Shown one piece after another: positions 2,943 to 63,730 of a stretch of 64,000 nt of DNA. Both the position numbers and the translations under genes were made by a program. This stretch comes from Gammaproteobacteria bacterium (lineage in GTDB: Bacteria; Pseudomonadota; Gammaproteobacteria; Ga0077554; Ga007554). Under the pieces are notes generated by a model. That model made no database searches. It was not told the DNA's origin and saw nothing but the letters and a program-made list of their open reading frames with translations. The stretch spans positions 1,400-65,399 of the forward strand of contig JACPOZ010000013.1 of the NCBI GenBank assembly GCA_016191235.1, given 5' to 3'. Within the stretch, counting starts at the first letter, position 1. Every line of letters starts with the position of its first letter.

Positions 2943-5639
2943 ATGATGCACGACATTTTTTTCGCGCTTGAACAGGGCGCAACATTATTGACCGCTAACA
3001 GGCGTCTGGCGCGTCATTTGTGCTGTATGTTTGATGCCCGTCAGGAGGCGAAAGGACGCGCGGCATGGCGAAGTGCCGACGTTCTGCCATTGCCCGCCTG
3101 GCTGGGGCGGTGTTGGGATGACATGGCGGAGAGCGCCACGCTGGGAGAGCATCCCGCGCTGCTAAATACCCAGCAGGAACTGACGCTGTGGGAACGGATC
3201 ATCACCGAGTCGCCGCAAGGGCAGGGGCTGTTGCGCGTTTCCGCTACGGCGCAGGACGCGCTGGAGGCATGGGCATTGCTCATGCAATGGAAGGTCATGC
3301 TTGATGGCAGGAATAATATCTTCAATGAGGATGTCCTGGCAGTCCAGCGATGGGCGCAGTCTTTTGAAGAACTCTGCCGTGTGTCTGGATGGATGGAGAA
3401 TGCCCGGTTGCCGGATTTTATCGCGCGGCAGATTCACGCCGGCGCATTGAAAGCGCCACGCCATCTCCTGTTGGCGGGATTTGATGAGTTGACTCCGCAG
3501 CAGCAGGCCCTGTTCGAGGCGTTGCGGGCGGCAGGCAGTGAAGTGAGCGAAGTTCAACTGCCGTCCTTCCCGCAGAGCCGGGCACGGCGCGTTGGATTTG
3601 CCGATTCCGATGCCGAGATCGCCTTCGCGGCACGTTGGTCTCGCCATCTGCTGGAACAGGGGCATGGCGGGGCGATAGGCGTGGTCATCCACGACCTGGG
3701 TACACTACGGGAAAAGGTGGCGCGAATTTTTAATGACGTGCTGTTGCCTGCCTCCATCATGCCCGGCGAGCCAGCGGATGTATCGCTCTACAATATCTCC
3801 TTGGGTACACCCCTGTCCGATCAGCCCCTTATCAATGCCGCCCTGCTGATTATCGAAATGGCGCAGGGAAAGTTGCCGCTGGAAAAGCTGGGGGCCTTGT
3901 TGTGCTCGCCGTTTTTGGCGGGAGGCGAGCAGGAAATGACACGCAGGGGGCTGCTGGATGCGCGGTTGCGCCGCTTTGGTGAGTTGACAGTCAGCGTGGA
4001 TGAGATAAAGCGCCACGCCCTCACTGCGGATGCCTGTCCGCTGCTCGGCGCGCGCCTGCGGCAGTGTATCGAGGTGATGCATACCTTGCCGCGCCATCAG
4101 CTTCCCAGTGCATGGGCGGCAACATTCCCTCGCTTGCTGGTGGCCATGGGCTGGCCGGGTGAACGCCCGCTGGATAGCCACGAATATCAAACGGTGATGG
4201 CCTGGCGTGAGCTACTGGCGGATTATGCGAGGCTGGATGAGGTGGTGGCAAGGCAAAGCCTCAACGAGGCACTGGCGCGTCTGCGGAAGATGGCCGCCGA
4301 CACGCTGTTTCAGCCGCAGGGGATGGATGCCCCAATACAGATCCTGGGCGTGATGGAGGCGGCGGGGATGCACTTTGATCACCTCTGGGTGATGGGCTTG
4401 CACGATGAGGTATGGCCGACGCCGCCGCGTCCCAATCCGTTTCTGCCGCTCTCGCTGCAACGCACGCAAGGCCTGCCGCATGCCTCTGCGCCGCGCGAAC
4501 TGGCATTCGCCCGGCGCATGACGGAAAGGTTGCTCGCCAGCGCTCCGGAAGTGGTGATGAGCTACCCGCAACGCGACGGCGATCGTCACCTGCGCCCCTC
4601 GCCGCTCATCGTCAGCCTGGAAGAAGCCGTGCCAGAGGGGCTGCCAGGCTATATGAGCGCGGCGCAAATACCTTCCTATGCGGCTGTCACGTACCAGGCA
4701 GCGGCTATCGAGAGTATGGGAGATTATCAGGCCCCTTCGTTGCCGGAAGGCTCGCTGGCCTCCGGCGGTACCGGAATTTTCAAGCAACAAGCCGCATGTC
4801 CATTTCGCGCCTTTGCCGAACATCGCCTGGGTGCGCGGCCATTGGCAACCACCCAGATCGGCTTGAATCCCATGGAGCGAGGGCAGCTTTTGCACGCGTC
4901 ATTGGAGCAGGCGTGGCAAAAACTTCACTCTTACGAAAGGCTGTGCAGCGCTTCCGACGAAGCGATAAACGATATCGTCACGCAGGCTGTTACGGCAGCC
5001 ATAGGCGCTATGGCAGAAAAACGGCGGCTTATCTTCACTGAAAAATTCACGGAACTGGAAAAAAACAGACTGGAGAAACTCGTCACCGCCTGGCTGGCGC
5101 TGGAAAAACAGCGTGCGCCTTTTACGGTGTTTGAGCCGGAACAGGAACGTGTGGTGCAGGTCGGCGGGATTAACGTGACCACCCGCATCGACCGCATTGA
5201 CCAACTGCCGGACGGTAGACAGGTCATCGTCGACTATAAGACGGGTGTTTCAGATACAGGCGGCTGGTTCGGTGATCGCCCGGACGAACCCCAGTTGCCT
5301 CTGTATTGCGCCTTTAATGAACAAGAGGTGGCGGCGCTGACGTTTGCGCAAGTCAGAAGCGGTGACATGAAATTCAAAGGCCTGGCGCAATATGACGGAA
5401 TAGCCCCCGGCATAAAGGCTATCGGCAAAATCGAAAGCATATCTTCGTGGCATGGCCTCGTCGAGGAATGGAGGGCGACGCTGCACAACCTGGGCGCAGC
5501 GTTCCGCACCGGCCATGCGCCGGTTGACCCGAAGAATCCGCCTCAGACATGCAAATTTTGCGCGCTTACACCGCTGTGCCGCATTCATGAGCATGATGGG
5601 GTGGGGCTTGAGGGCGACGCGCAAGAAGCTGGAGAATGA
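2943..5639 (+). CDS. PD-(D/E)XK nuclease family DNA repair protein (AddB-like, with Fe-S Cys cluster)
   Basis: 898 aa. The C-terminus has a RecB-type nuclease motif (IDRIDQLPDGRQVIVDYKTG ... QLPLY). It is bracketed by one upstream Cys (QQAACPFRAF) and CKFCALTPLC (C-X2-C-X5-C), as in AddB-type iron-staple nucleases. Confidence 0.7.
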   Translation: MMHDIFFALEQGATLLTANRRLARHLCCMFDARQEAKGRAAWRSADVLPLPAWLGRCWDDMAESATLGEHPALLNTQQELTLWERIITESPQGQGLLRVSATAQDALEAWALLMQWKVMLDGRNNIFNEDVLAVQRWAQSFEELCRVSGWMENARLPDFIARQIHAGALKAPRHLLLAGFDELTPQQQALFEALRAAGSEVSEVQLPSFPQSRARRVGFADSDAEIAFAARWSRHLLEQGHGGAIGVVIHDLGTLREKVARIFNDVLLPASIMPGEPADVSLYNISLGTPLSDQPLINAALLIIEMAQGKLPLEKLGALLCSPFLAGGEQEMTRRGLLDARLRRFGELTVSVDEIKRHALTADACPLLGARLRQCIEVMHTLPRHQLPSAWAATFPRLLVAMGWPGERPLDSHEYQTVMAWRELLADYARLDEVVARQSLNEALARLRKMAADTLFQPQGMDAPIQILGVMEAAGMHFDHLWVMGLHDEVWPTPPRPNPFLPLSLQRTQGLPHASAPRELAFARRMTERLLASAPEVVMSYPQRDGDRHLRPSPLIVSLEEAVPEGLPGYMSAAQIPSYAAVTYQAAAIESMGDYQAPSLPEGSLASGGTGIFKQQAACPFRAFAEHRLGARPLATTQIGLNPMERGQLLHASLEQAWQKLHSYERLCSASDEAINDIVTQAVTAAIGAMAEKRRLIFTEKFTELEKNRLEKLVTAWLALEKQRAPFTVFEPEQERVVQVGGINVTTRIDRIDQLPDGRQVIVDYKTGVSDTGGWFGDRPDEPQLPLYCAFNEQEVAALTFAQVRSGDMKFKGLAQYDGIAPGIKAIGKIESISSWHGLVEEWRATLHNLGAAFRTGHAPVDPKNPPQTCKFCALTPLCRIHEHDGVGLEGDAQEAGE

Positions 5640-5703
5640 AGTGCGGCGAGGGCGTGAAATTGTTAGAATGTTTCAAGTTATGAGTTGAACTGATGGAGTG
5701 TGT

Positions 5704-6960
5704 ATGGCCTACGATAAGATTACCGTCCCCGCTAATGGCGAGCGGATTACCGTCAATGCGGATTTTTCGCTGAATGTCCCGTCTCGCCCGATTATCCCAT
5801 TCATCGAAGGGGATGGCATCGGCGTGGATGTCACGCCAGTCATGTGTACTGTGGTCAATGCGGCGGTAGATAAAGCCTATAACGGTGCCAAATCCATCGC
5901 CTGGATGGAGGTGTATGCCGGGGACAAGGCGACGCAGGTCTATGGCAAGGATGTTTATCTGCCGGAAGAGACCATGCACGCGCTGCGTGAGTATCCCGTC
6001 TCCATCAAGGGGCCGCTGGCGACACCGGTGGGTGGCGGTATCCGCTCCCTGAATGTCGCCTTGCGGCAGGAGCTGGATCTTTATATCTGCCTGCGCCCGG
6101 TGCGTTATTTTACCGGCACCCCCAGCCCCGTGAAGGCGCCGGAGAAGGTGGACATGGTGATCTTCCGCGAAAACTCCGAGGATATCTACGCCGGTATCGA
6201 GTGGGCGGCGGGTACGCCCGAGGTGCAGAGGGTGATCGATTTTCTGCGCAATGAAATGGGCGTGAAAAAGATCCGTTTCCCCGATAGCTCCGCCATCGGC
6301 ATCAAGCCGGTGTCGCGCGAGGGCACCGAGCGTCTGGTGCGCAAGGCGTTACAGTATGCCATCGACAATGGACGTGACTCCGTGACCCTGGTGCATAAGG
6401 GCAATATCATGAAATTTACCGAAGGGGGATTCAAAAGCTGGGGTTATGAGCTGGCCAAGGCTGAATTCGGTGCCCAGGAGATCGGCAGCGGGCCGTGGTG
6501 CCGCATGAAAAACCCCAAGACTGGCGCTGAGATCCTCGTTAAGGACATTATCGCCGACGCCTTCCTCCAGGAGATCCTGTTGCGTCCCGAGGATTTCAGC
6601 GTGATCGCCACGCTCAACCTCAATGGCGATTACATCTCCGATGCGCTGGCCGCGCAGGTGGGCGGTATCGGCATCGCCCCCGGCGCCAATCTGTCCGATT
6701 CCATTGCCATGTTCGAGGCGACGCACGGCACCGCTCCCAAACATGCAGGCAAGAATGATGTCAATCCCAGTTCCGTGATCCTCTCTGCGGAGATGATGCT
6801 GCGACACATGGGCTGGTGTGAGGCGGCGGATCTGATCACCAGGGGCGTTGCAGGCGCCATTGCCAGCCATACCGTTACCCACGACCTGGCGCGATTGATG
6901 CCGGAAGCAACGCAGGTGAGCTGTTCCGGGTTTGGCGAGGCGGTTATTGCTAATATGTAA
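5704..6960 (+). CDS. icd: NADP-dependent isocitrate dehydrogenase
   Basis: [18 protein letters not shown]...[11 protein letters not shown]... is collinear with enterobacterial Icd. GGAG lies 5 nt upstream of the ATG at 5704. The track ORF starts 6 nt earlier at a GTG. Confidence 0.95.
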
Positions 6961-6964
6961 GCTG

Positions 6965-7131
6965 CTAGCAGCCTGTCTGACTTAGGTCGAATCTACTGCG
7001 AAAGCGGGAGAGCGGTCCATTTTTCCGCTATTTTTCGTTACACGTGCCAGCTATTCTCCTCAAAATAGCGGAAAACTGTCCTCGCTCCCCCACTTTCTCG
7101 CTACGACCCCCTAAGTCAGACAGGCTGCTAG
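6965..7131. repeat. 167-bp imperfect palindrome with perfect 22-bp terminal inverted repeats (MITE-like / bidirectional terminator)
   Basis: CTAGCAGCCTGTCTGACTTAGG at 6965..6986 is the exact reverse complement of 7110..7131. The interior also pairs imperfectly (…GCGAAAGCGGGAGAGCGG…TTTTCCGCTATTTT / AAAATAGCGGAAAA…CCTCGCTCCCCCACTTTCTCGC). Confidence 0.8.
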
Positions 7132-7163
7132 GGGCAGGCAGGGAATCTGTTTGCCCCTTGATT

Positions 7164-7379
7164 TTACCTGTTGTCTAGCGCAGCCTGTATGTTCTGCGCA
7201 TGCCTTCCCTTGGGGCCGTCGGTAACCTCGAACTCGACCTTTTGACCTTCGCGCAAGGTCTTGTAGCCGTCCATGGAGATTGCCGAGAAATGGGCAAAGA
7301 TATCTTCGCCGCCGCCCTCTGGGGCGATAAAGCCATACCCCTTGGCATTGCTGAACCATTTGACAGTGCCAGTCGCCAT
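7164..7379 (-). CDS. cspD: cold-shock domain protein, CspD-like
   Basis: [52 protein letters not shown]... contains RNP1/RNP2 motifs. It is divergent from clpS, as cspD is in E. coli. Confidence 0.9.
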
Positions 7380-7616
7380 ACTATATTACCTCGTGGATCG
7401 TGACGGGGTTTGCCGCAGTTGAATTGTCGTATGATGCCCGGTGACGGGTTGACTTTCCATTTCTATTGTGGTCTTGAATACTTTTATAACGATTTTTTGC
7501 GGATAGTCAAGCCCCATTTGAGAAAATAGATGGGGCTTGCACTGCGTTTATGATGTCCCAATAATGAGACGGCGTACTGGGAAAATTTTTCGGGTTTTGA
7601 GTACAATCGGATCACT

Positions 7617-7937
7617 ATGAAAGAAGGACAACAGGATAATCATGACGATGGATTGGCGCTGGAGGAGGCGAAGCCGAAGCTCAAACGCCCGCCCATGTAC
7701 AAGGTGCTGCTGCTGAACGACGACTACACGCCTATGGAGTTTGTCGTTCATGTATTGGAGGTCTTTTTTGCCATGAGCCGCGATCAGGCTACCCAGGTCA
7801 TGCTGCATGTGCATACGCGAGGGGTGGGGGTGTGCGGTTTTTTTACGCGTGATATCGCCGAGACCAAGGTGGCCCAGGTGACGCAATTTGCACAGGAAAA
7901 CCAGCACCCGTTGAAATGCACCATGGAAGAGGCATAG
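7617..7937 (+). CDS. clpS: ATP-dependent Clp protease adaptor ClpS
   Basis: [29 protein letters not shown] signature. It lies directly upstream of clpA. Confidence 0.95.
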
Positions 7938-8032
7938 ACTCAGTTCGGGTCCACGGATGGACGAGGTGAGCAACGCAGGGAGACAGTTGCTGGTACGTTT
8001 TTCATTAAGTCTTCGGACAAGAGGTTAATCCC

Positions 8033-10300
8033 ATGTTAAGCAAGGATCTCGAATTCACGCTTAATATCGCCTTCAGAGAGGCGCGTGAAAAATTGCACGA
8101 ATTCATGACAGTCGAGCACTTGCTGCTCGCCTTGCTTGATAATCCGGGAGCGGTCGCGGTGTTGCGTGCTTGCGGCGCCGATCTCGACAGGTTGAAGAAG
8201 GATCTTGCCACTTTTGTGGACGAGAGCACCCCTTTGCTGCCCTTGCAGGACAAGCGCGACACCCAGCCCACGCTGGGCTTCCAGCGGGTTCTGCAGCGCG
8301 CGGTGTTTCATGTGCAATCCTCCGGGAAAAATGAGGTGCAAGCCGCCAATGTACTGGTTGCCATTTTCGGCGAGCAAGATTCCCAGGCCGTTTACTTCCT
8401 CGGCCGGCAGAACGTCACGCGCCTGGACGTTGTGAATTATATCTCCCATGGCATCTCCAAGGTGCATGGCGAGGGCGAGGGAACGCCGCACACGCCCTCC
8501 AGCGAGGACGAGCCGGGGGCGGAGGCGCCCGCCAAAAGCCCGCTTGAACTCTATGCCGCCAATCTGAATCAATTGGCCAGGCAAGGCAAGATTGACCCTC
8601 TGATTGGCCGCAGGCACGAAATCCAGCGCACCGTCCAGATCCTGTGCCGCCGCCGCAAGAATAACCCGCTGTTCGTCGGCGAGGCGGGCGTGGGCAAGAC
8701 CGCGCTGGCCGAAGGCCTGGCGAAGATGATCGTCGATGGCGAGGTACCGGAGGTGCTGGCCCATAGCACAGTGTATTCGCTGGACCTGGGCGCGCTGCTG
8801 GCGGGCACCAAATATCGCGGTGATTTTGAAAAGCGCCTCAAAGGCGTGGTTAATCAGTTGCAGAAAGAGCCGGGCGCGATCCTGTTCATCGACGAGATTC
8901 ATACCATCATCGGCGCGGGCGCGGCCTCCGGGGGGGTGATGGACGCCTCCAACCTGATCAAGCCGGTGCTCGCCTCGGGTGCGCTGAAGTGTATCGGTTC
9001 CACTACCTATCAGGAATACCGTGGTGTTTTTGAGAAGGACCGTGCCCTGGCGCGACGCTTTCAGAAGATCGACGTGGCGGAACCCACGGTTGATGAGACG
9101 GTGCAGATCCTGGAGGGCCTGAAGTCACGTTTTGAAGAACACCACCATGTCAAATACTCCAAGCAGGCGCTGCGTGTGGCGGCGGAACTGGCGGCACGCT
9201 ATATCAATGATCGTTATTTGCCCGACAAGGCCATTGACGTGATCGACGAGGTGGGGGCGAATCAGCACTTGCTGCCTGCCTCCAAGCGCAAAAAGGTGAT
9301 CGGCGTCAAGGAGATCGAGGATATCGTCGCCAAGATTGCGCGCATCCCGCCCAAGAGCGTTTCCAGTTCCGACAAAGACGTGCTGCGCAATCTGGAACGT
9401 GACCTGAAGATGCTGGTGTTTGGCCAGAACGATGCCATCGAAGCATTGGCATCAGCAATCAAGATGTCGCGGGCTGGCCTGGGCAATGTGCAAAAACCCA
9501 TAGGTTCTTTCCTGCTCGCCGGCCCCACCGGCGTGGGCAAGACCGAGGTGACGCGCCAGCTTGCCAAGGTCATGGGGATCGAACTGATCCGCTTCGATAT
9601 GTCCGAATACATGGAGCGCCATACCGTATCACGCCTGATCGGTGCGCCACCGGGCTACGTGGGTTTTGATCAGGGCGGCCTGCTGACTGAGGCGGTCACC
9701 AAACACCCTCATGCAGTGCTGTTGCTGGATGAGATCGAGAAGGCGCACCCGGATGTTTTCAACATTCTATTGCAGGTAATGGATCACGGTACGCTCACGG
9801 ACAACAACGGGCGCAAGGCCGATTTCCGTAATGTGATCCTGATCATGACCACCAATGCCGGGGCGGATCAGATGAGCCGCAGTTCCATCGGTTTCGTGCA
9901 TCAGGACCATGCCAGCGACGGCACGGAGGCGATCAAGCGCCTGTTCAGCCCTGAATTCCGCAACCGCCTGGACGCCACTATCCAGTTCAAGCCGCTGGAC
10001 AGCGCCACTATCGCCTTCGTGGTGGACAAGTTCATCATTGAGCTGGAAGCCCAGTTGGAAGATAAAAACGTTACGCTCGAAGTCGATAGTACCGCCCGGC
10101 ACTGGCTGGCCGAGCATGGTTATGACGAGAAGATGGGTGCGCGCCCGATGGCGCGGATCATTCAGGAACACATCAAGCGCCCCCTTGCCGAAGAGCTGCT
10201 GTTCGGCAAACTCGCACGCGGCGGGCATATTCGCATCAGCGTGCGCGAAGGCAAGCTCGCCTTCGCACTGGAAGGCGCGGAGCAATTGCAGGAAAGTTAG
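8033..10300 (+). CDS. clpA: ATP-dependent Clp protease ATP-binding subunit ClpA
   Basis: 755 aa with two AAA+ modules (GEAGVGKTA and GPTGVGKTE Walker A) and a Clp N-domain. Confidence 0.95.
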
Positions 10301-17020: not shown

Positions 17021-17198
17021 TCTCAAATGCCAGGGCGGCACTGCGTGCGCCCTGATCTGCAGCTTTAACCCTTACTCCTCGTTCGCGGCAGCTTTTGGAT
17101 GCTAGCGCAAAGTAGTAATGTGCTAATATTCCTGGGTGGCATTTACCATCTCAACATGAGAAAATTTAAATCGACAAGCCCATGCGCGTTGCACACTT

Positions 17199-17846
17199 AT
17201 GAAATCAAAAGCTTTCGATAGAAGTGAACACGTATATAAAAACGACGCTTTTGCTGAACTCGTCAAAGACGCTATCAGGTTCTTTAACGGTACTCCCGTA
17301 CACACGCTGCCCCCGCCAGAGTCTTTCCTTGGCACAGGGGTTTACGCCATCTATTACACAGGCAAAAATCCCGCATACAAAAAATATGCAGAGTTGAATC
17401 GACTGTCTTACAGTTACCCAATATATGTCGGCAAGGCTGTACCAAAGGGCTGGCGTCAAGCGCGGGTTTCCGATAGCAATTTCGATCAGTCCAAAGAACT
17501 ATTTAACCGTCTGCGGGAGCACAGTCGAAGCATCAGTATTGCTCAAAGGCTAGAACTTCAAGACTTCAGGTGCCGGTTTGTCATCTTTGAGGACGCCAGC
17601 TCGGACATGATTAGCACCATCGAGGCTGCGTTAATCAAGTTGAATATGCCTCTCTGGAATACGGCTGTGGATGGCTTCGGAAATCACGACCCCGGAAGCG
17701 GGCGATATGAACAAGCAAAATCGGATTGGGATGTGATTCATCCGGGCCGAGCTTGGGCAGAAAAATGCAACGGCGCTCATGCTGAAGAAAGCACCATCCT
17801 TTCCAGAATCAAAAATCACTTCAAAAATATCGAGCGCAAGCCATGA
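17199..17846 (+). CDS. Eco29kI-family type II restriction endonuclease (GIY-YIG fold)
   Basis: 215 aa. GVYAIYYTG … YPIYVGKAVP … NRLREH is a GIY-YIG arrangement. The overall sequence (…FDRSEHVYKND…FNGTPVHTLPPPE…WNTAVDGFGNHDPGSGR…KSDWDVIHPGRAWAEK) matches my memory of R.Eco29kI. Confidence 0.8.
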   Translation: MKSKAFDRSEHVYKNDAFAELVKDAIRFFNGTPVHTLPPPESFLGTGVYAIYYTGKNPAYKKYAELNRLSYSYPIYVGKAVPKGWRQARVSDSNFDQSKELFNRLREHSRSISIAQRLELQDFRCRFVIFEDASSDMISTIEAALIKLNMPLWNTAVDGFGNHDPGSGRYEQAKSDWDVIHPGRAWAEKCNGAHAEESTILSRIKNHFKNIERKP

Positions 17847-19024
17847 AGTCACTAGAGATATTTTCTGGGGCTGGTGGGTTGGCTAAAGGGCTAGAGCTTG
17901 CTGGTTTTCAGCATTCTGCGTTTGTGGAATTTAATAAACATGCTTGCGCATCGCTCTATGAAAACTTTGAAGCGGGAAAAGTTTTCTTTGGCGATATTAA
18001 AGATTTTGACCTTAATGCCTTGGGCGAAGTTGATGTCGTAGCGGGCGGCCCGCCTTGCCAGCCATTTTCATTGGGTGGAAAACATAGGGCGGATCAAGAT
18101 AGCCGCGACATGTTCCCCTATGCAATTCGAGCGATTGAACAACTCACCCCAAAAGCCTTTGTATTCGAGAACGTCAAAGGCTTGCTCAGGGCATCATTTG
18201 CGGATTACTTCGAATACATAATCCTGAGGCTTACCTACCCCGGATTTATTGCGAAGCAAGATGTCGACTGGAAAGAACATTTGTCCGACCTCCGTAACAT
18301 TGGGCAGCTTCCCTATGCCGGAACAAAATACGACGTTTCGTTCAAGTTAATAAACGCAGCAAATTATGGTGTCCCGCAAACGCGGGAACGGGTTGTCATC
18401 GTAGGCACGAGAGCTGATCTGGGCTTGTCCTGGTTATTCCCCGCAGAAACACATTCTGAAGACAGATTGCTTTGGGAAATGTATGTTACCGGCGAATATT
18501 GGAAGCGCCACAACGTTGCAGAATCAGAGCGCGCACCGCTAACCGAGCTTCTGCAAGAGAAGGTTGTTCGCTTGAAAGATAAATACGGCATGTTTGAACC
18601 GGAGTGTGCGCCCTGGCGCACGGTGAGGGACGCGCTGCAAGGCATCCCGGATCCAGAGACCCAGCACGGCATTGACGATCATGTCTTCCACGACGGTGCG
18701 CGCACCTATCCCGGCCATACGGGCAGCGATATAGACTGGCCAGCAAAAACCATCAAGGCGGGAGGCCATGGCGTTCCCGGCGGAGAAAATATGATCCGCT
18801 ATCCGGATGGCAGCGTCCGTTATTTTACGGTGTGTGAGGCAAAACGAATTCAGACATTCCCAGACAGTTTCGTCATAAAAGGCGCCTGGGGCGAAGCCAT
18901 GCGCCAGATAGGGAATGCGGTTCCTGTATTGCTGGGCGAGACAATAGGCCGTGAGTTGGCGAGTAGACTGGGGGCGCGGAGCGATTTTATTAAGGCAAGA
19001 CAGCCGTACCAGGCAAAGCTTTAA
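17843..19024 (+). CDS. DNA (cytosine-5)-methyltransferase
   Basis: Motif I (EIFSGAGGLAKG), motif IV (GGPPCQPFS), motif VI (ENVKGL), motif VIII (QTRERVVIVG) and motif X (GNAVPVLL). Its start overlaps the REase stop (ATGA). Confidence 0.95.
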   Translation: MKSLEIFSGAGGLAKGLELAGFQHSAFVEFNKHACASLYENFEAGKVFFGDIKDFDLNALGEVDVVAGGPPCQPFSLGGKHRADQDSRDMFPYAIRAIEQLTPKAFVFENVKGLLRASFADYFEYIILRLTYPGFIAKQDVDWKEHLSDLRNIGQLPYAGTKYDVSFKLINAANYGVPQTRERVVIVGTRADLGLSWLFPAETHSEDRLLWEMYVTGEYWKRHNVAESERAPLTELLQEKVVRLKDKYGMFEPECAPWRTVRDALQGIPDPETQHGIDDHVFHDGARTYPGHTGSDIDWPAKTIKAGGHGVPGGENMIRYPDGSVRYFTVCEAKRIQTFPDSFVIKGAWGEAMRQIGNAVPVLLGETIGRELASRLGARSDFIKARQPYQAKL

Positions 19025-19075
19025 ACTTCCAAAAAATCAAGGTGAAATCCATCAATTCCACGGGGCGGGGAAACC

Positions 19076-20548
19076 ATGTATCGCAAAGAAACGCTATCTA
19101 TCACGCAGCTTGATCTCGATGTATCCAATCCTAGAACCAATCCAGAGGACAATCAGACTGAGGCCATGCAGAGTCTTTTATCCGTTGAGCACGACGGAGA
19201 AAAAGTTCTGGCACTTGCTTTCGATATTTGCGAGATTGGCATGCTTGACCCAGGCGACCGGCTTTATGTGATAGCCTCGAAGTACGAGTCCAATCGTTAC
19301 ATTGTACTTGACGGCAACCGTCGGTTAACCGCTTTGCGCTTGCTTTCTCAGCCGGGCCTGCTTGATCGGGATGACATCGGACTCAACACAGCGATGCGTC
19401 AGCGCTTCAAACGTCTTCAAACAGAGTTCCCGAATAAATGGCCTTCCGAAGCCGATGTTGTGATCTTTGATGACAGGGAGACTGCGAAACGTTTTATTCG
19501 TTTGCGTCACGCTGGTGAAAACGATGGGGCTGGTCGTAGTGCTTGGTCCGCTCTGCAGGTTGCACGATTTGACCACACGGGTCTTTGGCAGTGTGTCGAG
19601 CAGCTACGGCAAGCGCAAGTGCTTAATTTGGATGTAATCAATGAGCTGGATCGGAGCGCCTTTAAAATCACCAACTTCGAGCGAGTGGTGGGTAAGGTTC
19701 AGTTCCAGCAACGCTTTGGCTTTACTCTTGGACCCAAGAAATTTGAAATTGGCGCAGATAGGCAGCGCGCCTTGCAGGCGCTTTCCAAAGTCGCTAGTGA
19801 TGTGGTGTCTGGGCATGTACATACCCGTGATGAGTTTGCAAAAGCTGAATCCATGTCTAATTATTTCAACGAGGTTGAGGCCGCAATATCGCCAGTGACC
19901 GCACAGCCATCCACGCCGACAGAAGCCTCGCTTGAGCCAGCCAAGCACGACACTGATCAGTCGGCGCCCAAGCCCACGGGTTCATCCAGTGCGGCTCAAG
20001 CAGGTTCGAGGGCTTCGCAGCAGTACACCATGCCAAATGAGGCATCTGAGACGGCTCCAGTAATTGCTCGAAAAAAACGAACTTTGAAGTACCTGATCGA
20101 CAAAAGGGACTTGCAAACGGTAACCAATGCGAAATGTCGAGAGATTGTTATCGAGTTAAAGGAGGGAGTTGAGGTACAACGAGCCCCTTATGCCTGTGCT
20201 TTGCTGCTCCGCTCGCTACAGGAAATGACGGCAGAACTTTATTTGACGGCAATGCAACAAAAAGTTGGCAATAAAACCACGAACATCGATCAGGCGGCAA
20301 ATCACCTGCTTGGAAGCTCCCACCCAACTGATCCAGCCAATAAAACGGTGCTGGCTACGAGTTTTAAGAGTTCGGGGCAGATTTATGAGCAGCTTTGCCA
20401 AACAGCACATAACACAAACAGTGCCATTAGCCAAGATCATGTTCGTACCACGTGGCGCAATCTGAGCGGAGGGATGGATCTTCTCTGGAAGAGAATTTAC
20501 GCAGCTAGTCAACCCATTGTCCTACAACAATCAAATCCATTGAAATGA
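19076..20548 (+). CDS. ParB/Srx-fold N-terminal domain protein with low-complexity linker and unassigned C-terminal domain
   Basis: 490 aa. N-terminal …LDLDVSNPRTNP… and …RYIVLDGNRRLTALRLL… resemble ParB/sulfiredoxin-type (DGxxR) nuclease/NTPase domains. Residues around 265-335 are S/T/P/A/Q-rich. I cannot assign the last 150 aa or so. Confidence 0.6.
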   Translation: MYRKETLSITQLDLDVSNPRTNPEDNQTEAMQSLLSVEHDGEKVLALAFDICEIGMLDPGDRLYVIASKYESNRYIVLDGNRRLTALRLLSQPGLLDRDDIGLNTAMRQRFKRLQTEFPNKWPSEADVVIFDDRETAKRFIRLRHAGENDGAGRSAWSALQVARFDHTGLWQCVEQLRQAQVLNLDVINELDRSAFKITNFERVVGKVQFQQRFGFTLGPKKFEIGADRQRALQALSKVASDVVSGHVHTRDEFAKAESMSNYFNEVEAAISPVTAQPSTPTEASLEPAKHDTDQSAPKPTGSSSAAQAGSRASQQYTMPNEASETAPVIARKKRTLKYLIDKRDLQTVTNAKCREIVIELKEGVEVQRAPYACALLLRSLQEMTAELYLTAMQQKVGNKTTNIDQAANHLLGSSHPTDPANKTVLATSFKSSGQIYEQLCQTAHNTNSAISQDHVRTTWRNLSGGMDLLWKRIYAASQPIVLQQSNPLK

Positions 20549-20570
20549 TCAAGCGCAAACGGAAACAGTA

Positions 20571-21461
20571 ATGGCGAATTGCACCCCCCTACGGTATCCC
20601 GGTGGCAAGGCGCGACTGCGGCCTTACTTAGAAAAATTAATCGCTCAGAACAGACTATATGATGCTCATTATGTAGAACCGTTTTGCGGTGGATCGGGTT
20701 TGGCGCTTGATCTGCTATTGAGCTACGTGGTCAGTGCTATTCACATCAATGATTTTGACCGGGCTGTGTTCGCGTTCTGGGACAGCGCTGTATTTCACAC
20801 TGATGATTTATGCGCCAGAATTAGCGATACACCATGCAACATGGACACATGGCACGTTCAACGAACCATCTGGCGTAATCGCGACAAGAGCAATCTTCTG
20901 GAGCTTGGTTTTTCTACGTTCTTCCTCAATAGGACTAATCGTTCAGGCATTCTTGCAGCAGGTGTAATTGGGGGGAAGAACCAGACGGGTAAGTGGAAGA
21001 TCGATGCGCGCTATAACCGTGACGACCTGATTCAACGCATCCAAGCAATAGGAAAGTTTCGCTCCCGTATTAGTGTTTACAACTTAGAGGCACGTAATTT
21101 CCTCGAAGTGATTCAGCCAAAGTTACCCCAGAACGCACTGGTATATCTTGATCCGCCATACGTGGAGAAAGGGCCAGGGTTATATCTCAATCATTACAAC
21201 GAGAAAGATCACCGGGAACTCGCCACATGGGTAACGCAAAAGCTGCATCGCCCGTGGATGGTTTCTTATGACGATCATCCGTTGATACGAGAATGCTACG
21301 GAAAAAACACAGGGGCAGAGATGAATCTGCCATATAGCGCCTACGGCAATGCCCGACGTGGAACCGAGCTGGTATACTTCTCAAAGGGATTGAAGTCGCC
21401 AGATATGCGTGATCGCATTTCGAGGCATCATCAACCTTGGGAAGCATTTATAGCGACCTAA
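20571..21461 (+). CDS. Dam-type (D12 class) N6-adenine DNA methyltransferase
   Basis: N-terminal …PLRYPGGKARL…EPFCGGSG… (AdoMet binding) and catalytic LDPPY. Confidence 0.85.
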   Translation: MANCTPLRYPGGKARLRPYLEKLIAQNRLYDAHYVEPFCGGSGLALDLLLSYVVSAIHINDFDRAVFAFWDSAVFHTDDLCARISDTPCNMDTWHVQRTIWRNRDKSNLLELGFSTFFLNRTNRSGILAAGVIGGKNQTGKWKIDARYNRDDLIQRIQAIGKFRSRISVYNLEARNFLEVIQPKLPQNALVYLDPPYVEKGPGLYLNHYNEKDHRELATWVTQKLHRPWMVSYDDHPLIRECYGKNTGAEMNLPYSAYGNARRGTELVYFSKGLKSPDMRDRISRHHQPWEAFIAT

Positions 21462-21536
21462 AAAATATTTTTAAATTTGGCGTTATACCTTGTGTCCAGA
21501 TTAGATAGTTCTAGGGTTGACCCCTGACTTCCAGAT

Positions 21537-22229
21537 ATGGCCTCGCAAAAATATCCTCCAACCGTTTGGGACGTTGCAGCAGCGTTGAAAAACCGCTACC
21601 ACGACTTCAATCACTATAACCTCAAGGAACCGCTCGACGAATTGCTGTTCATCATTTGCAGTACCAGAACTGACGAAACGGGCTACCGTAGCACCTTCCG
21701 CTCACTGAAAGAAACCTTTCCCACCCATTTGCAGATTGCCGAAGCGCCAGCCGAATATATTGCACGGCCTATCGTTAGCGGTGGTCTATCGAACCAGAAA
21801 GCAAAGGCGATCCGCAATCTTTTCGATGTCATCGTGGCAAAGTTCGGTGAGCCGACTCTGAAGCCATTACGCAAGATGAGCGACAAGGATGCAGAAGTTT
21901 TCTTGTTGTCACTGCCGGGAGTTGGGAAGAAAATTGCGCGATGTGTTTTGATGTACTCGTTAGGCAGGCAAGTTTTTCCTGTGGACACGCATTGCTGGCG
22001 AATCGCCAGGCGTCTCGGCTGGGTCAGGCCGACGCAAAAAGACAAACACTGCGCGCCGCGAGACATGGATCGCCTGCAATCCAAAATCCCGCCCGAGCTT
22101 CGCTACTCGTTACACGTGAACATGATTTCTCTTGGGCGCGAGATTTGCGTCCCGACCACCCCCCGGTGCGATGAATGTCCAATATCGGCTTGGTGCCCCA
22201 AGATTGGCGTGCCACGGATAAGGAAATAA
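21537..22229 (+). CDS. endonuclease III-like HhH-GPD DNA glycosylase with [4Fe-4S] loop
   Basis: HhH motif LPGVGKKIARCVL has Lys at the EndoIII catalytic position. It is followed by VDTH (catalytic Asp) and a C-terminal CVPTTPRCDECPISAWC (C-X6-C-X2-C-X5-C). Confidence 0.8.
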   Translation: MASQKYPPTVWDVAAALKNRYHDFNHYNLKEPLDELLFIICSTRTDETGYRSTFRSLKETFPTHLQIAEAPAEYIARPIVSGGLSNQKAKAIRNLFDVIVAKFGEPTLKPLRKMSDKDAEVFLLSLPGVGKKIARCVLMYSLGRQVFPVDTHCWRIARRLGWVRPTQKDKHCAPRDMDRLQSKIPPELRYSLHVNMISLGREICVPTTPRCDECPISAWCPKIGVPRIRK

Positions 22230-22362
22230 CAAAGATGAACGTGGAGAGTCGCATAACGTTTGGTGTATTGCTGCGCCGTAGCTTTCGGATTTCTCAGAGG
22301 CCCGCCAACAGGTTATAATATCCCGCTTTGCCTTGTTTCCATATAACCGAAAGAAATCATCC

Positions 22363-43896: not shown

Positions 43897-44556
43897 CTAT
43901 GCAGTAGTTTTCGAAGGACAGATATCTGCAAGACAGCAGCGTGAACATAGCGGCCGCTTACGGCACACGTCCTTCGCGTGATTGACGATCAGGGCGTGGT
44001 ATTCGTTGAACAGGCGCGCGTCGGCATTGGTATTGTCGCTGCCCAGTTCTGTCTCGAAGGTATGGCGCAGTGTCTCGTAGCCTTCATCGCCCTTGATCAG
44101 GCCGAGGCGGGAAAATAGCCGCCGGGTATAGGTGTCGATGACGAATACGGGGCGGTTAAAGGCGTAAAGCAGTATGTCGTCGGCGGTTTCAGGGCCAATG
44201 CCATGCACGGCCAACAAGGCATGGCGCAGTGCATGTATATCCAGCGTCGATAACGTTTCCAGCCCTCCCTGCGCCATGTACCAGACGCAGAAACTTCTTA
44301 GGCGCTGTGCCTTGATGTTGAAATAGCCCGAGGGCCTTAGCCACTGAGCAAGATGCTCATGTGAAACATGGGTAATGCGCGCGGGATCGAGATGATCTTG
44401 CGCCTTGAGATTGGCGATGGCTTTTTCGACGTTGGTCCACGCGGTGTTTTGTGTCAACACCGCGCCGACCATGATTTCAAAAGGGGTATCCCCTGGCCAC
44501 CAGTGCTGCGGGCCGTAGTATGCGTAAAGGGTGTCGTAGACCTTTGTGAAGCCCAT
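43897..44556 (-). CDS. endonuclease III-related HhH-GPD protein (COG2231-like)
   Basis: …YGPQHWWPGDTPFEIMVGAVLTQNTAW…, an HhH region (…VHGIGPETADDILLYAF…) and a C-terminal Cys cluster (CRKRPLCSRCCLADIC). The start was chosen at MGFTKVY. The track ORF extends 82 codons into the antisense of rluB. Confidence 0.75.
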   Translation of the reverse strand: MGFTKVYDTLYAYYGPQHWWPGDTPFEIMVGAVLTQNTAWTNVEKAIANLKAQDHLDPARITHVSHEHLAQWLRPSGYFNIKAQRLRSFCVWYMAQGGLETLSTLDIHALRHALLAVHGIGPETADDILLYAFNRPVFVIDTYTRRLFSRLGLIKGDEGYETLRHTFETELGSDNTNADARLFNEYHALIVNHAKDVCRKRPLCSRCCLADICPSKTTA

Positions 44557-44557
44557 G

Positions 44558-45589
44558 TTACCGCTGGGTTTTGGATGGCTTACGCTGCGGGCTACGGGCG
44601 TCGGGTTTTGAATTGCGCGTTTCACGCTGTGGGCTACGTGTTTTACTTTGTGGACCGCGTGCTTCACGTTGCGGGCTACGAGTTTCACGCTGTAGGCTAT
44701 GTGTTTCACGTTGGGATTCTCGGCCTCGGGCCGTTGTTCCCCTGCCCCTGGCACCATGTTTCCGATCCCTCGTCTGCGGCTGGCTATCAGGCACGGCGAC
44801 ATCTTCCAGCCCTGCCGCCTGCATCAATTTTGCGATGCCACCGGCATCAAGCTCCTCCATTTGTCCGGTGCGCATCCCTTTGCGCAGCAGGATGGGGCCA
44901 TAGCGCACGCGCATCAGGCGGCTGACTTTCACGCCCTGGCTTTCCCATAGGCGCCGCACTTCGCGGTTACGACCCTCTTTGAGTACCACGTGATACCAGC
45001 GATTGCTCCCTTCGCCGCCGGCGTCCTCGATGGCATCGAAATTCGCCATGCCGTCATCCAGCATTACGCCCTGCTTCAGGCGCGCCAGCATCGCATCATC
45101 CACCTTGCCCAGCACGCGCACCGCGTACTCGCGTTCCACCTCTGTGGAAGGGTGCATGAGCCTGTTGGCCAGCTCGCCATCGGTGGTCAGTAAAATCAGC
45201 CCGGCGGTATTGATGTCGAGACGCCCCACGGCGACCCAGCGTGCGCTAGGCAGCCTGGGGAGGTGGCCAAAAATAGTGGGGCGTCCTTCGGTGTCGGAGC
45301 GTGTACAGACCTCGCCTTCCGGTTTGTAGTAGACCAATACGCGACGTTTGATTGGCTCCAGCTTATAGGTCTGCACCTCGCGGCCATCGATGGCGATCTT
45401 GTCTTGTAGTGTCACGCGGTCGCCCAATTTGGCGAGGCTGTCGTTGACGGCAATGCGTCCGGCCTCTATCCACTCTTCGATCTGACGGCGTGAGCCGAGA
45501 CCTGCGTTGGCGAGTACCTTTTGCAGTCTTTCGGCAGGTGTCTGGGGGGGCGTGGTTTGAGTCTTGTTGAGGGGCGGGCGTTTTTTCAT
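44558..45589 (-). CDS. rluB: 23S rRNA pseudouridine synthase RluB with repetitive basic C-terminal tail
   Basis: S4 domain (ERLQKVLANAGLGSRRQIEEWI), catalytic VGRLD and a tail of RETRSPQ-like heptads. Confidence 0.9.
   Translation of the reverse strand: MKKRPPLNKTQTTPPQTPAERLQKVLANAGLGSRRQIEEWIEAGRIAVNDSLAKLGDRVTLQDKIAIDGREVQTYKLEPIKRRVLVYYKPEGEVCTRSDTEGRPTIFGHLPRLPSARWVAVGRLDINTAGLILLTTDGELANRLMHPSTEVEREYAVRVLGKVDDAMLARLKQGVMLDDGMANFDAIEDAGGEGSNRWYHVVLKEGRNREVRRLWESQGVKVSRLMRVRYGPILLRKGMRTGQMEELDAGGIAKLMQAAGLEDVAVPDSQPQTRDRKHGARGRGTTARGRESQRETHSLQRETRSPQREARGPQSKTRSPQRETRNSKPDARSPQRKPSKTQR
44565..44715 (-). repeat. degenerate 21-bp tandem repeats encoding the RluB tail
   Basis: About 6-7 units of TTCACGCTGTGGGCTACGTGT-like sequence. 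They translate to RETHSLQ/RETRSPQ/REARGPQ/SKTRSPQ/RETRNSK/PDARSPQ. Confidence 0.75.
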
Positions 45590-61466: not shown

Positions 61467-62750
61467 TCAAGAATCAGTCAGCTCGTACACAATCTTGCCT
61501 GCCAGCAGCGTATGCGTCACGCGGCCTTTGAATTCCCACCCCATGAATGGCGTGTTACGGCCGCGGCTTAGCAGGGTGCTTTCCGTCAATTCCCAATAGC
61601 GTTGCGGGTCGAAAATGCAGATGTCCGCAGGCGCCCCCGAGCTTAGCGTGCCTGCCTCAATGCCGAGGATTTGCGCGGGTTTATGGGTCAGGCACGCCAG
61701 AACTTCGCTGAGCGTGAGCACGTCTTCATCCACCAGCCGCAGGCTGAGCGGCAGCAGGGTATCAAGGGAGGATATGCCCGGCTCAGTGGCGCTGAAGGGG
61801 GCCAGCTTGGCATCCGGTTCATGCGGCTGGTGGTCGGAGCAGATCGCCGCCACAGCGCCACGCGCCAGGCCTGCGCGCAAGCCGTCACGGTCGCGTTGGG
61901 TGCGCAACGGCGGGGTGACATGGCATTGGCTGTTGAAGTCGGCCACGTCCATCTCCGTGAGATATAGATGATGCGCGCTCACGTCCGCGCTGACCGGCAG
62001 ACCCTCGTAACGTGCGCGCGCCACCATGCGTACTGCGCGTGCCGTAGACAGCCTGCAAAAGTGCGCGCGCACCCCGGTCTGTTCGATTAGCATCAGATCG
62101 CGCGCTACCGCCGCAGTCTCGGCGGACTCGGGGATGGCGGGCAAGCCAAGGCGCGTGCTGACAGCGCCTTCGTGCATGCAGCCCTTATTGCGCAGCCAGG
62201 GGTCTTCGGGGTTTAGAAATACCGTCAGGCCATGCGTGGCTGCGTATTCCATGGCGCAGCGCAACACGTGGGCATTGGTGACAGGGTGCAGAGCATTGCT
62301 GACCCCGGCGCAGCCTGCCGCTTTTAGTGCCGCCATTGCGCTCAAACTTTCCCCCGCCAACCCTTCGGTGAGTGCGCCCAGCGGTACAACCCGTGCGTAT
62401 CCTGCCGCCTCGGCGCGGTTGCGGATGAGCTCGATGACTGCGGGGGTGTCGATCACGGGGTCAGTATCCGGCGGGCAACACAGGGTAGTGATGCCCGCGC
62501 TGGCTGCCGCGAAGGTTTCGCTGGCGATGGTGCCCTTATGTTCCTGGCCAGGTTCGCGCAGGCGTGCGCACAGGTCTACCAGGCCGGGGCAAACGATCAG
62601 GCCGGTGGCGTCGATCTCGCGTTCCGCAGTAAAGCCTTGAAAATCGCTGCCGATGGCCTGGATGCGGCCGTCGGCGATGAAAACATCCTGCACGCCATCA
62701 ATGGCGTTGGCAGGGTCGATAACACGTCCGTTGGTAATGCGCAGGCGCAT
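61467..62750 (-). CDS. pyrC': dihydroorotase-like protein, probably the non-catalytic PyrC' partner of aspartate carbamoyltransferase
   Basis: 427-aa amidohydrolase fold directly downstream of pyrB, with a 1-nt overlap (TGATG). The position of the metal-binding DxHxH motif reads GLVDLCARLREPG, so both His are missing. Confidence 0.75.
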   Translation of the reverse strand: MRLRITNGRVIDPANAIDGVQDVFIADGRIQAIGSDFQGFTAEREIDATGLIVCPGLVDLCARLREPGQEHKGTIASETFAAASAGITTLCCPPDTDPVIDTPAVIELIRNRAEAAGYARVVPLGALTEGLAGESLSAMAALKAAGCAGVSNALHPVTNAHVLRCAMEYAATHGLTVFLNPEDPWLRNKGCMHEGAVSTRLGLPAIPESAETAAVARDLMLIEQTGVRAHFCRLSTARAVRMVARARYEGLPVSADVSAHHLYLTEMDVADFNSQCHVTPPLRTQRDRDGLRAGLARGAVAAICSDHQPHEPDAKLAPFSATEPGISSLDTLLPLSLRLVDEDVLTLSEVLACLTHKPAQILGIEAGTLSSGAPADICIFDPQRYWELTESTLLSRGRNTPFMGWEFKGRVTHTLLAGKIVYELTDS

Positions 62751-63730
62751 CAGATGATCTCTCCTTCAAGATTCGCGCGAGAGGACATGGCCATCGACAT
62801 GATCGCCATGCGAACCGCGATGCCATGTGTGACCTGCTCAAGGATCACGGAGCGTGTGCCGTCGGCAACCGCCGAGTCGATCTCGACGCCGCGATTGATG
62901 GGGCCGGGGTGCATGACGATGACATCCGGCTTGGCGAGTGCAAGTTTTTCTTCAGTCAGCCCGTAAAGACGAAAGTATTCATGTTCACTGGGCAGCAAAG
63001 CGCCGCGCATGCGTTCGTGTTGCAGGCGCAGCGTGATCACCACATCAACATCGCGCAATCCCTCGCGCAGATCGTGGTGGACATGCACACCGAGGGCCTC
63101 GACATCAGCGGGCATCAGGGTTTCAGGCCCGATGACGCGCACCTCGTTGACGCCGAGCGTGGTCAGTGCATGTATCTGCGAGCGCGCCACTCGCGAATGC
63201 AGAATGTCGCCGACGATGGCGATATTGAGCGGCGCAAAGTCCTTTTTATGGCGGCGAATGGTGAACATGTCCAGCATCGCCTGGGTAGGATGCGCATGGC
63301 GGCCATCACCGGCATTGATCACGCTGATGTGCGGTGCCACATGCTGGGCGATAAAGTGCGCCGCACCGCTGCGGTCGTGGCGCACCACGAACATATCGCA
63401 GTGCATCGCCTGAAGGTTGTGCAGCGTGTCGAGCAGGCTTTCGCCCTTGCTTGTCGCCGAGGCCGCGACATTGATGTTAAGCACGTCCGCTGAGAGGCGC
63501 TTGGCGGCGAGTTCAAAGGTGGTGCGGGTGCGCGTGCTGGCTTCGAAGAACAGATTGACGATGGTCTTGCCGCGCAGCAGGGGGACTTTCTTGATGGATT
63601 GCGCGGTGACGCCGGAAAACGATTCGGCGGTGTCCAGTATCTCCACCAGCAGTTTGCGGTTCAGACCCTCAATGGTTAGAAAGTGGCGCAGACGGCCGTT
63701 TTTGTCGAGCTGTATATTGTGGCGTCTCAT
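62750..63730 (-). CDS. pyrB: aspartate carbamoyltransferase catalytic subunit
   Basis: …[13 protein letters not shown]… (STRTR carbamoyl-phosphate motif), …HPTQA…, …MHPGP…. Confidence 0.95.

Follow-up and report, generated by a model that had tools for sequence, protein, structure and literature searches.

PD-λ-5 is a two-gene anti-phage system that was isolated by functional selection from Escherichia coli ECOR7, and its anti-phage activity has been validated (Vassallo et al. 2022, Nat Microbiol, PMC9519451). Its protection in E. coli is broad, with 9 of 10 phages affected, its cloning required an mrr-deleted host, and it was termed 'RM+Abi'-like (Vassallo et al. 2022, PMC9519451). In the supplementary table of the same study, it is entered as "ParB/HEPN, methyltransferase," two proteins in 2.46 kb (Vassallo et al. 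2022, PMC9519451). A literature search on PD-λ-5 found no description of its mechanism. A predicted copy of this system is present in the stretch of 64,000 nucleotides from contig JACPOZ010000013.1 (assembly GCA_016191235.1) that was analyzed here, which is referred to as the window. The copy comprises genes 1 and 2 of three co-directional genes that follow a complete restriction-modification (R-M) pair in an island of lower GC content, and gene 3 encodes an endonuclease III (EndoIII)-like DNA glycosylase. An earlier note on this DNA had placed the three genes at exactly the coordinates confirmed here (Table 1) and had proposed them as a candidate for one undescribed defense module. The present analysis indicates that the region is very probably a composite defense island, which consists of an Eco29kI-type R-M pair, PD-λ-5 in a variable slot, and a glycosylase belonging to the island backbone, and not one three-gene system.

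Gene 1 matches the PD-Lambda-5_A model PDLC04012 of PADLOC-DB with an E value of 9.9e-218, residues 1 to 478 of 490 being aligned with profile positions 1 to 483 of 494, and 26 PD-Lambda-5_A models match it. Gene 2 matches the PD-Lambda-5_B model PDLC04018 (E 6e-116) and the D12-class methyltransferase family PF02086 (E 6e-17), and it contains the FxGxG and DPPY motifs, which bears out its previous assignment as a D12-class N6-adenine methyltransferase. The window pair spans 2.39 kb, compared with 2.46 kb in ECOR7, and agrees with the founding system in size and annotation. Both systems consist of adjacent genes for a protein of about 490 amino acids (aa), which is annotated as ParB/HEPN, and a D12 adenine methyltransferase of about 290 aa, and the hidden Markov model matches are full length. 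These profile matches identify the first two genes as a PD-λ-5 copy. The window pair differs from the founding system in its host, a betaproteobacterium related to Sulfuricella and Gallionella, and in its location, which is chromosomal and within an R-M island rather than in a prophage. The claim of an undescribed system therefore fails, since genes 1 and 2 are a named and validated system that is contained in PADLOC (PMC9519451).

The co-occurrence of the three genes was examined at 87 protein A loci, which include close homologues with 54 to 64% identity and 80 loci with 21 to 38% identity from a profile-seeded scan of metagenome contigs. A D12 methyltransferase gene directly adjoins the protein A homologue in 72 of the 87 loci, and most of the others are cut by contig ends. 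An EndoIII-like gene occurs in only one of them, L055. Conversely, no homologue of PD-λ-5 A or B was found in the 50 gene 3 loci of other species. Close A-B pairs without the glycosylase are found in Burkholderia gladioli, Achromobacter xylosoxidans, and one further assembly, always with the D12 methyltransferase (54 to 64% identity), and their neighbors are an AIPR gene, type IV secretion system and relaxase genes, or TniQ/TniB transposon genes, the last of these in the further assembly. The three-gene set is not a conserved unit, and PD-λ-5 does not include the glycosylase. The earlier view of a methylation-based defense module thus holds for genes 1 and 2 and not for the glycosylase. The earlier note had itself named two outcomes that would speak against its module, and both were found: the ParB-like protein matches a component of a known system, and the trio does not co-occur elsewhere, the close relative L055 being the single protein A locus with a glycosylase.

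Some loci of this set have additional features. In B. gladioli (L057 to L059, positions 8080 to 9789), an AIPR (abortive-infection) protein is encoded about 680 nt downstream of the PD-λ-5 pair. In L056 (positions 4965 to 8769), the PD-λ-5 methyltransferase gene is convergent and lies between two A-like genes, of which the first shares 62% identity with gene 1 and the other is only distantly related. This locus adjoins TniQ, TniB, and Mu-type transposase genes, which suggests that PD-λ-5 can be transposon cargo. L055 has about 307 additional bp (positions 150 to 456) after the methylase stop codon and before PD-λ-5 A. This segment contains an opposite-strand 99-aa open reading frame (ORF) and has no counterpart in the window.

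In a blastn comparison of the window with four related loci (L054, L013, L005, and L027), two conserved blocks were found, one containing the R-M pair (17134 to 19029) and one containing the glycosylase gene (21531 to 22268). The homology halts by about 19024 to 19029, at or before the methylase stop codon, and restarts at 21531 to 21537, at the glycosylase start. The 2.5 kb between the two blocks is variable and in these four loci is empty or is occupied by an HNH_2 gene or by a second R-M system. In some species, the second R-M system consists of a C5 methylase and a GHKL-ATPase-type restriction endonuclease, and in several loci the interval from the Eco29kI pair to the glycosylase gene also contains an EcoO109I or MvaI R-M system. 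The Eco29kI R-M pair and the glycosylase gene are a conserved frame around a gene-bounded variable slot, and PD-λ-5 occupies this slot in the window.

Gene 3 is common in R-M islands of related bacteria. Its homologues form more than 120 protein clusters at 82 to 90% identity, and the 50 loci of other species, which were taken from GTDB contigs with one genome per species, encode proteins with 75 to 90% identity, except for one with 52%. All but one of these 50 loci come from Nitrosomonadales-type betaproteobacteria, including Sulfuricella, Sulfurimicrobium, Gallionella, Sideroxydans, Ferrigenium, Sulfuriferula, Nitrotoga, and others. Among the 35 informative loci, which have at least 4 kb of upstream sequence, 29 contain at least one C5-cytosine methyltransferase gene within 7 kb upstream of the glycosylase. 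When clustered at an identity of at least 50%, the 47 ORFs of these upstream C5 methylases fall into 16 groups. Thirteen of the 50 loci contain the Eco29kI R-M pair in full (14 loci if the window is counted), and several more have parts of it only. Amino-methyltransferase motifs were seen in only one substantial unassigned island ORF, in L045, in addition to a 103-aa ORF with a DPPY motif in the same locus, and the 25 most frequent Pfam families of the 119 island ORFs include none of amino-methylases. The gene directly upstream of the glycosylase varies and encodes an HNH_2 nuclease, an EcoO109I or MvaI/BcnI endonuclease (accompanied by Vsr in one case), a GHKL-ATPase-type restriction enzyme together with a second C5 methylase, a McrC-like protein, or a RhuM or Bro-N protein, and in other loci no such gene is present at this place.

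The chromosomal sites of these islands also differ. The commonest arrangement, dihydroorotase (DHOase)-island-glycosylase-oligopeptidase A, is found in 16 of 48 loci. The glycosylase has 28 different downstream neighbors, and the unit of R-M genes and glycosylase occurs at other sites in the window (between TPR and phosphoenolpyruvate [PEP] carboxylase genes), in L013 (DUF3683/LigT), and in L054 (DbpA upstream), indicating that the glycosylase moves with the island. The glycosylase has a median pairwise identity of 85 to 86%, the methylase one of 87%, and the restriction endonuclease one of 88%, compared with 78 to 80% for flanking core genes. These values suggest that the island backbone either is old in this lineage or has been exchanged within it. 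Gene 3 belongs to this backbone and is the last gene of R-M islands in related Nitrosomonadales, whatever precedes it. In five of the 50 species loci (L046, L047, L048, L050, and L052), the glycosylase gene is frameshifted, fragmented, or truncated; L047 and L048 are also without a C5 methylase, and there is no clear correlation.

Some features of the window weigh against a composite origin. The five island genes are closely spaced on one strand, and terminator prediction gave no convincing candidate, so that gene 3 may be co-transcribed with PD-λ-5. L055, a 3.8-kb contig with 88% nucleotide identity to the window, likewise has the methylase 3' end followed by A, B, and the glycosylase gene. 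The spacing within the trio had been given as 23 and 76 bp; it is indeed short, and the exact values are 22 and 75 nt, a counting difference. This arrangement, the preserved order in L055, and the precedent of glycosylases that act as defense effectors, such as Brig1 (cited in PMC12191111), would all suit a single dedicated system, in which the glycosylase was recruited into a lineage-specific variant of PD-λ-5, where it would be a third component or second effector. The co-occurrence counts already largely refute such a system, with the glycosylase in 1 of 87 protein A loci and PD-λ-5 in none of the 50 glycosylase loci. In addition, the glycosylase takes the same terminal position behind unrelated genes (HNH_2, EcoO109I R, MvaI R, RhuM, and Bro-N), and L055 represents the same insertion event in a close relative and not independent support for the trio. 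A single three-gene system is thus very unlikely, and the composite island is preferred. If the link of the EndoIII-like enzyme to defense is real, it is a link to R-M and methylase modules generally and not to PD-λ-5.

The features of the island are listed in Table 1. The GC content is 45 to 53% over about 17.1 to 22.3 kb, compared with 57 to 61% in the flanking PBP1b and PEP carboxylase genes. By Pfam matches, the island is flanked by housekeeping genes, with PBP1b and a TPR protein upstream and PEP carboxylase and FabI downstream, and blastn homology to the islands of other genomes begins at 17134 to 17139 and ends at 22210 to 22268. The restriction endonuclease and C5-methylase genes overlap by 4 nt and constitute an Eco29kI-family type II R-M pair in one operon. 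At the borders of the island and the slot, a search for repeats (direct or inverted), att-like sites, promoters, and terminators gave nothing above chance. In the window, the DHOase gene, which borders the glycosylase island in many Gallionellaceae, is located at 61470 to 62765 and is followed by other conserved sequence that is common to L013. The DHOase-PepM3 site, where the island usually lies, is thus either empty or rearranged in this genome.

Table 1. Features of the defense island in the window (positions in the window; E, expect value)
Feature	Positions	Strand	Evidence
Low-GC defense island	17134..22268		Between TPR gene (end 17020) and PEP carboxylase gene (start 22333); limits from GC content and blastn homology
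Eco29kI-family type II restriction endonuclease, 215 aa	17199..17846	+	PF09517 E 2e-73; PADLOC REase_II E 4e-114
C5-cytosine DNA methyltransferase, 393 aa	17843..19024	+	PF00145 E 1e-58; TIGR00675 above cutoff; PADLOC MTase_II E 1e-166
Variable slot, here with PD-λ-5	19030..21530		Homology break in L054, L013, L005, and L027
Gene 1, predicted PD-λ-5 protein A, 490 aa	19076..20548	+	PADLOC PD-Lambda-5_A
ParB/Srx-like N-terminal region of protein A (aa 1-270) with invariant G80-N81-R82-R83 box	19076..19885	+	Foldseek; alignment
Disordered S/T/P/A-rich linker of protein A (aa 275-325)	19898..20050	+	Predicted local distance difference test (pLDDT) score <50; consensus poorly conserved
C-terminal five-helix bundle of protein A (aa 335-480), HEPN-like	20078..20515	+	Domain model; invariant E360, R379, and H445
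Gene 2, predicted PD-λ-5 protein B, 296 aa, D12-class N6-adenine DNA methyltransferase	20571..21461	+	PADLOC PD-Lambda-5_B; PF02086
Gene 3, EndoIII-like HhH-GPD/[4Fe-4S] DNA glycosylase, 230 aa, terminal gene of the island	21537..22229	+	PF00730 and PF10576 matches

Pfam and NCBIfam searches with the full-length gene 1 product gave no match; searches with its two halves at E values up to 10 gave only GmrSD_N (E 0.024), PDB sequence searches with the protein and its family profile gave only a marginal ParB-like nuclease chain (6ryk; E 0.02), and phage records contain only distant hypothetical proteins with 23 to 31% identity. In the alignment-based AlphaFold model of protein A (pLDDT 85), the N-terminal region of about 270 aa has the N-terminal regions of Noc, ParB, and KorB as its top Foldseek matches, with a probability of 1.0 and E values of about 3e-3. 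Its 'DGNRR' box, in which G80 to R83 are GNRR, is invariant in 49 homologues. The ParB/Srx motif set and the low-complexity linker that had been noticed before are present in the translation, and they are in line with the structural match to ParB and the disorder of aa 275 to 325. Protein A shares its predicted N-terminal fold and a GxxRR-type box with ParB/Srx-fold defense domains, such as the GmrSD N-terminal DUF262 and ParB CTPases, and it may bind NTP or act as a nuclease. Its sequence does not show significant membership in these families (E 0.02). The C-terminal domain, when modeled alone, has a pLDDT of 88.5 and a predicted template modeling (TM) score of 0.81, and its bundle gives the highest target-normalized TM scores to the HEPN proteins 2hsb (0.52) and 1wwp (0.47), with Foldseek E values above 1. 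The lack of a significant Foldseek or Pfam score for HEPN counts against this assignment, and the HEPN label of the domain comes from the literature annotation and not from this structure comparison; the domain is here called HEPN-like. As a whole, the modeled architecture supports the ParB part of the PD-λ-5 annotation and is compatible with the HEPN part.

Protein B, as a Dam-like D12 methyltransferase, presumably marks adenines in a host motif, and the need for an mrr-deleted E. coli host is indirect support for adenine methylation by this protein. Protein A would then be the effector, acting once unmarked DNA enters. It might bind or cleave DNA through its ParB-like part, cleave RNA through its HEPN part in an abortive infection, or do both, the ParB/Srx-type module being a possible DNA- or NTP-binding module (or nuclease) and the HEPN-type module a putative RNase. 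The earlier suggestion that the effector is the ParB-like protein and/or a base-excision enzyme is thus retained, as a presumption, for the ParB-like protein, and it is dropped for the glycosylase as a part of the module.

The gene 3 product has an HhH-GPD domain (PF00730; E 2e-10), a PF10576 match, a catalytic Asp, and a C-X6-C-X2-C-X5-C cluster, all of which are characteristic of the HhH-GPD/Fe-S superfamily. K132, D150, and C204/C211/C214/C220, which had been read correctly as the lyase Lys, the Asp, and the Fe-S cluster of an EndoIII-type enzyme, correspond in an alignment to K120, D138, and the Fe-S cysteines of E. coli Nth. All 121 sequences that were aligned (gene 3 and 120 homologues) have K132, D150, C204, and C211, and C214 and C220 are each replaced in one. 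Gene 3 scores below the Nth equivalog cutoffs, with 76.9 bits against 211.7 for TIGR01083 and 45 against 405 for PRK10702. The best match among solved structures and NCBIfam models is Deinococcus radiodurans EndoIII-1 (DR2438; PDB 4unf and 8a5c), with an E value of 5e-27. The two proteins share the HhH-GPD and Fe-S architecture, but gene 3 scores 112 bits against a family cutoff of 400, which indicates that it is not an orthologue, and the genomic contexts differ. Gene 3 is predicted to encode an active glycosylase. Its apurinic/apyrimidinic lyase activity is uncertain, since the Lys is kept, yet EndoIII-1, its nearest characterized relative, is named a monofunctional glycosylase by NCBIfam. 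The window encodes a second HhH-GPD/Fe-S glycosylase paralogue of 301 aa on the minus strand (43897 to 44802), which is distant from gene 3 (E 4e-10) and has a 3-methyladenine glycosylase model as its best NCBIfam match, below the cutoff.

More distant relatives of gene 3 were found by a search seeded with a Nitrospirae copy that is 52% identical to it, and the loci of five proteins were examined. This clade, with about 50% identity to gene 3, is large and includes Nitrospirota, Thermodesulfovibrionales, Dissulfurispiraceae, and others, and the invariant residues are common to both clades. In all 12 loci returned (L142 to L153), the glycosylase gene lies 3 to 50 nt downstream of a methylase-based defense module. 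The module types are a DUF1156 methylase with a DUF499 ATPase, corresponding to PADLOC HmaB/HmaC (Hma); an N6_N4 methylase with MTaX1/HNH_2, in two different neighborhoods; and an N6_N4 methylase fused to a Bpu10I-type nuclease. Hma was termed type-1 BREX-related in a 2026 survey, which does not mention the glycosylase. The recurring methylase-HNH_2-glycosylase trio may be a unit in itself. The general rule for the gene 3 clade is that it is the last gene after a methylase-containing defense module, not merely a neighbor of C5 methylases. Literature searches returned no account of defense modules that recurrently end in an intact EndoIII-like gene. It is tentatively proposed that these proteins constitute an undescribed clade of catalytically intact EndoIII-like glycosylases that are recurrently encoded last in methylase-based defense modules (C5 R-M, PD-λ-5, Hma, and N6_N4 plus HNH) of several lineages and that either serve as repair accessories or attack modified phage bases.

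The base-excision work of gene 3 is most likely linked to methylation-based defense. The preferred reading, which is put forward with somewhat less than even confidence, is that gene 3 is an accessory that repairs lesions caused by DNA methylation, in the manner of Vsr and Mig, for example, T:G or U:G mismatches from deaminated 5-methylcytosine (5mC) or cytosine. Mig.MthI is reportedly an EndoIII-family T/G mismatch glycosylase that is linked to the m5C methylase M.MthTI on plasmid pFV1. Mig.MthI and Vsr resemble gene 3 in being base-excision or nicking repair enzymes encoded beside C5-cytosine methylases, and the near-exclusive association with C5 methylases in Nitrosomonadales favors a repair role. 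Three points weigh against this reading. Partners elsewhere are not C5 methylases, as the relatives with about 50% identity follow N6-adenine or N6/N4 methylase systems, which weakens a role in the repair of deaminated 5mC alone; a C5-methylase neighbor is thus a feature that gene 3 shares with Mig.MthI in Nitrosomonadales and not in the distant clade. The lyase Lys is retained (K132 is invariant), whereas Mig.MthI has Tyr126 in its place (PMC9945173). In L014, a gene 3 homologue co-exists with a Vsr. The full-length match to Mig.MthI (1kea) is weak (E 3e-10) and no closer than that to Nth.

Alternatively, gene 3 could be a stand-alone anti-phage enzyme that excises noncanonical bases, such as 5-hydroxymethyluracil, deoxyuridine, or 5-hydroxymethylcytosine derivatives, from the DNA of phages that escape R-M, which would place it last in methylase-based defense modules of several phyla. 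Its position directly after R-M or other defense genes in every context examined (C5 R-M, Hma, N6_N4 with MTaX1/HNH_2, and N6_N4-Bpu10I), its conserved active-site residues, and the type IV-like neighbors (HNH_2 and McrC-like) in some loci suit this role. Precedents are Brig1 and the END nucleases with an EndoIII-like sensor domain, which have a base-excision fold that is encoded in defense islands and used in phage defense (PMC12191111). In the END nucleases, however, the EndoIII domain is inactive and is joined to a nuclease in one protein, whereas the gene 3 product stands alone with intact catalytic residues, and the predicted structure of Brig1 is unlike the EndoIII/Ogg1-like domain (PMC12191111). 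Viral contigs, phage records, and plasmids contain no close relatives of gene 3 but only Nth genes with about 30% identity, PADLOC gives only a weak match, to the REBASE-type 'Type II nicking endonuclease' model, and the almost exclusive C5-methylase association within Nitrosomonadales fits a repair role better. An anti-phage enzyme is thus rather unlikely. A housekeeping EndoIII paralogue at the border of an integration hotspot, without a functional tie to the defense genes, is more doubtful still. Although the same core gene, oligopeptidase A, adjoins gene 3 at the DHOase-PepM3 site in 16 of 48 loci and the median identity of the glycosylase (85%) is only moderately above that of flanking core genes (78 to 80%), a housekeeping gene would hardly have 28 downstream neighbors, travel with R-M genes to other sites in the window, L013, and L054, recur 3 to 50 nt behind defense genes in unrelated contexts among its distant relatives, and score below the nth equivalog cutoff. 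Two further candidates were considered. A restriction glycosylase matched to one methylase (PabI-like) was ruled out, as the same 85 to 90%-identical protein is found behind at least 16 methylase clusters, and a 5mC-excising enzyme (ROS1-like; ROS1 PDB match, E 2e-18) is implausible, since the host island itself makes 5mC.

For PD-λ-5, the window adds one more homologue, in an environmental betaproteobacterium, and little else changes; it also provides an example of a defense system that can occupy a gene-bounded slot within an older R-M island. Mutagenesis of protein A could directly target the invariant residues G80-N81-R82-R83, H145, E360, R379, and H445. Genes 1 and 2 belong to an already known kind, and only the recurrent link of gene 3 to defense modules has some novelty. 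This by-product may matter more, as an EndoIII-like enzyme that travels with many kinds of methylation-based defense. Should gene 3 act on modified phage bases by excising them, a new stand-alone defense enzyme with the HhH-GPD fold would have been found. Should its role be the repair of lesions induced by methylation, it would correspond to Vsr on a wide scale and would reduce the mutational cost of R-M, and such an accessory would make DNA-methylating immunity affordable.

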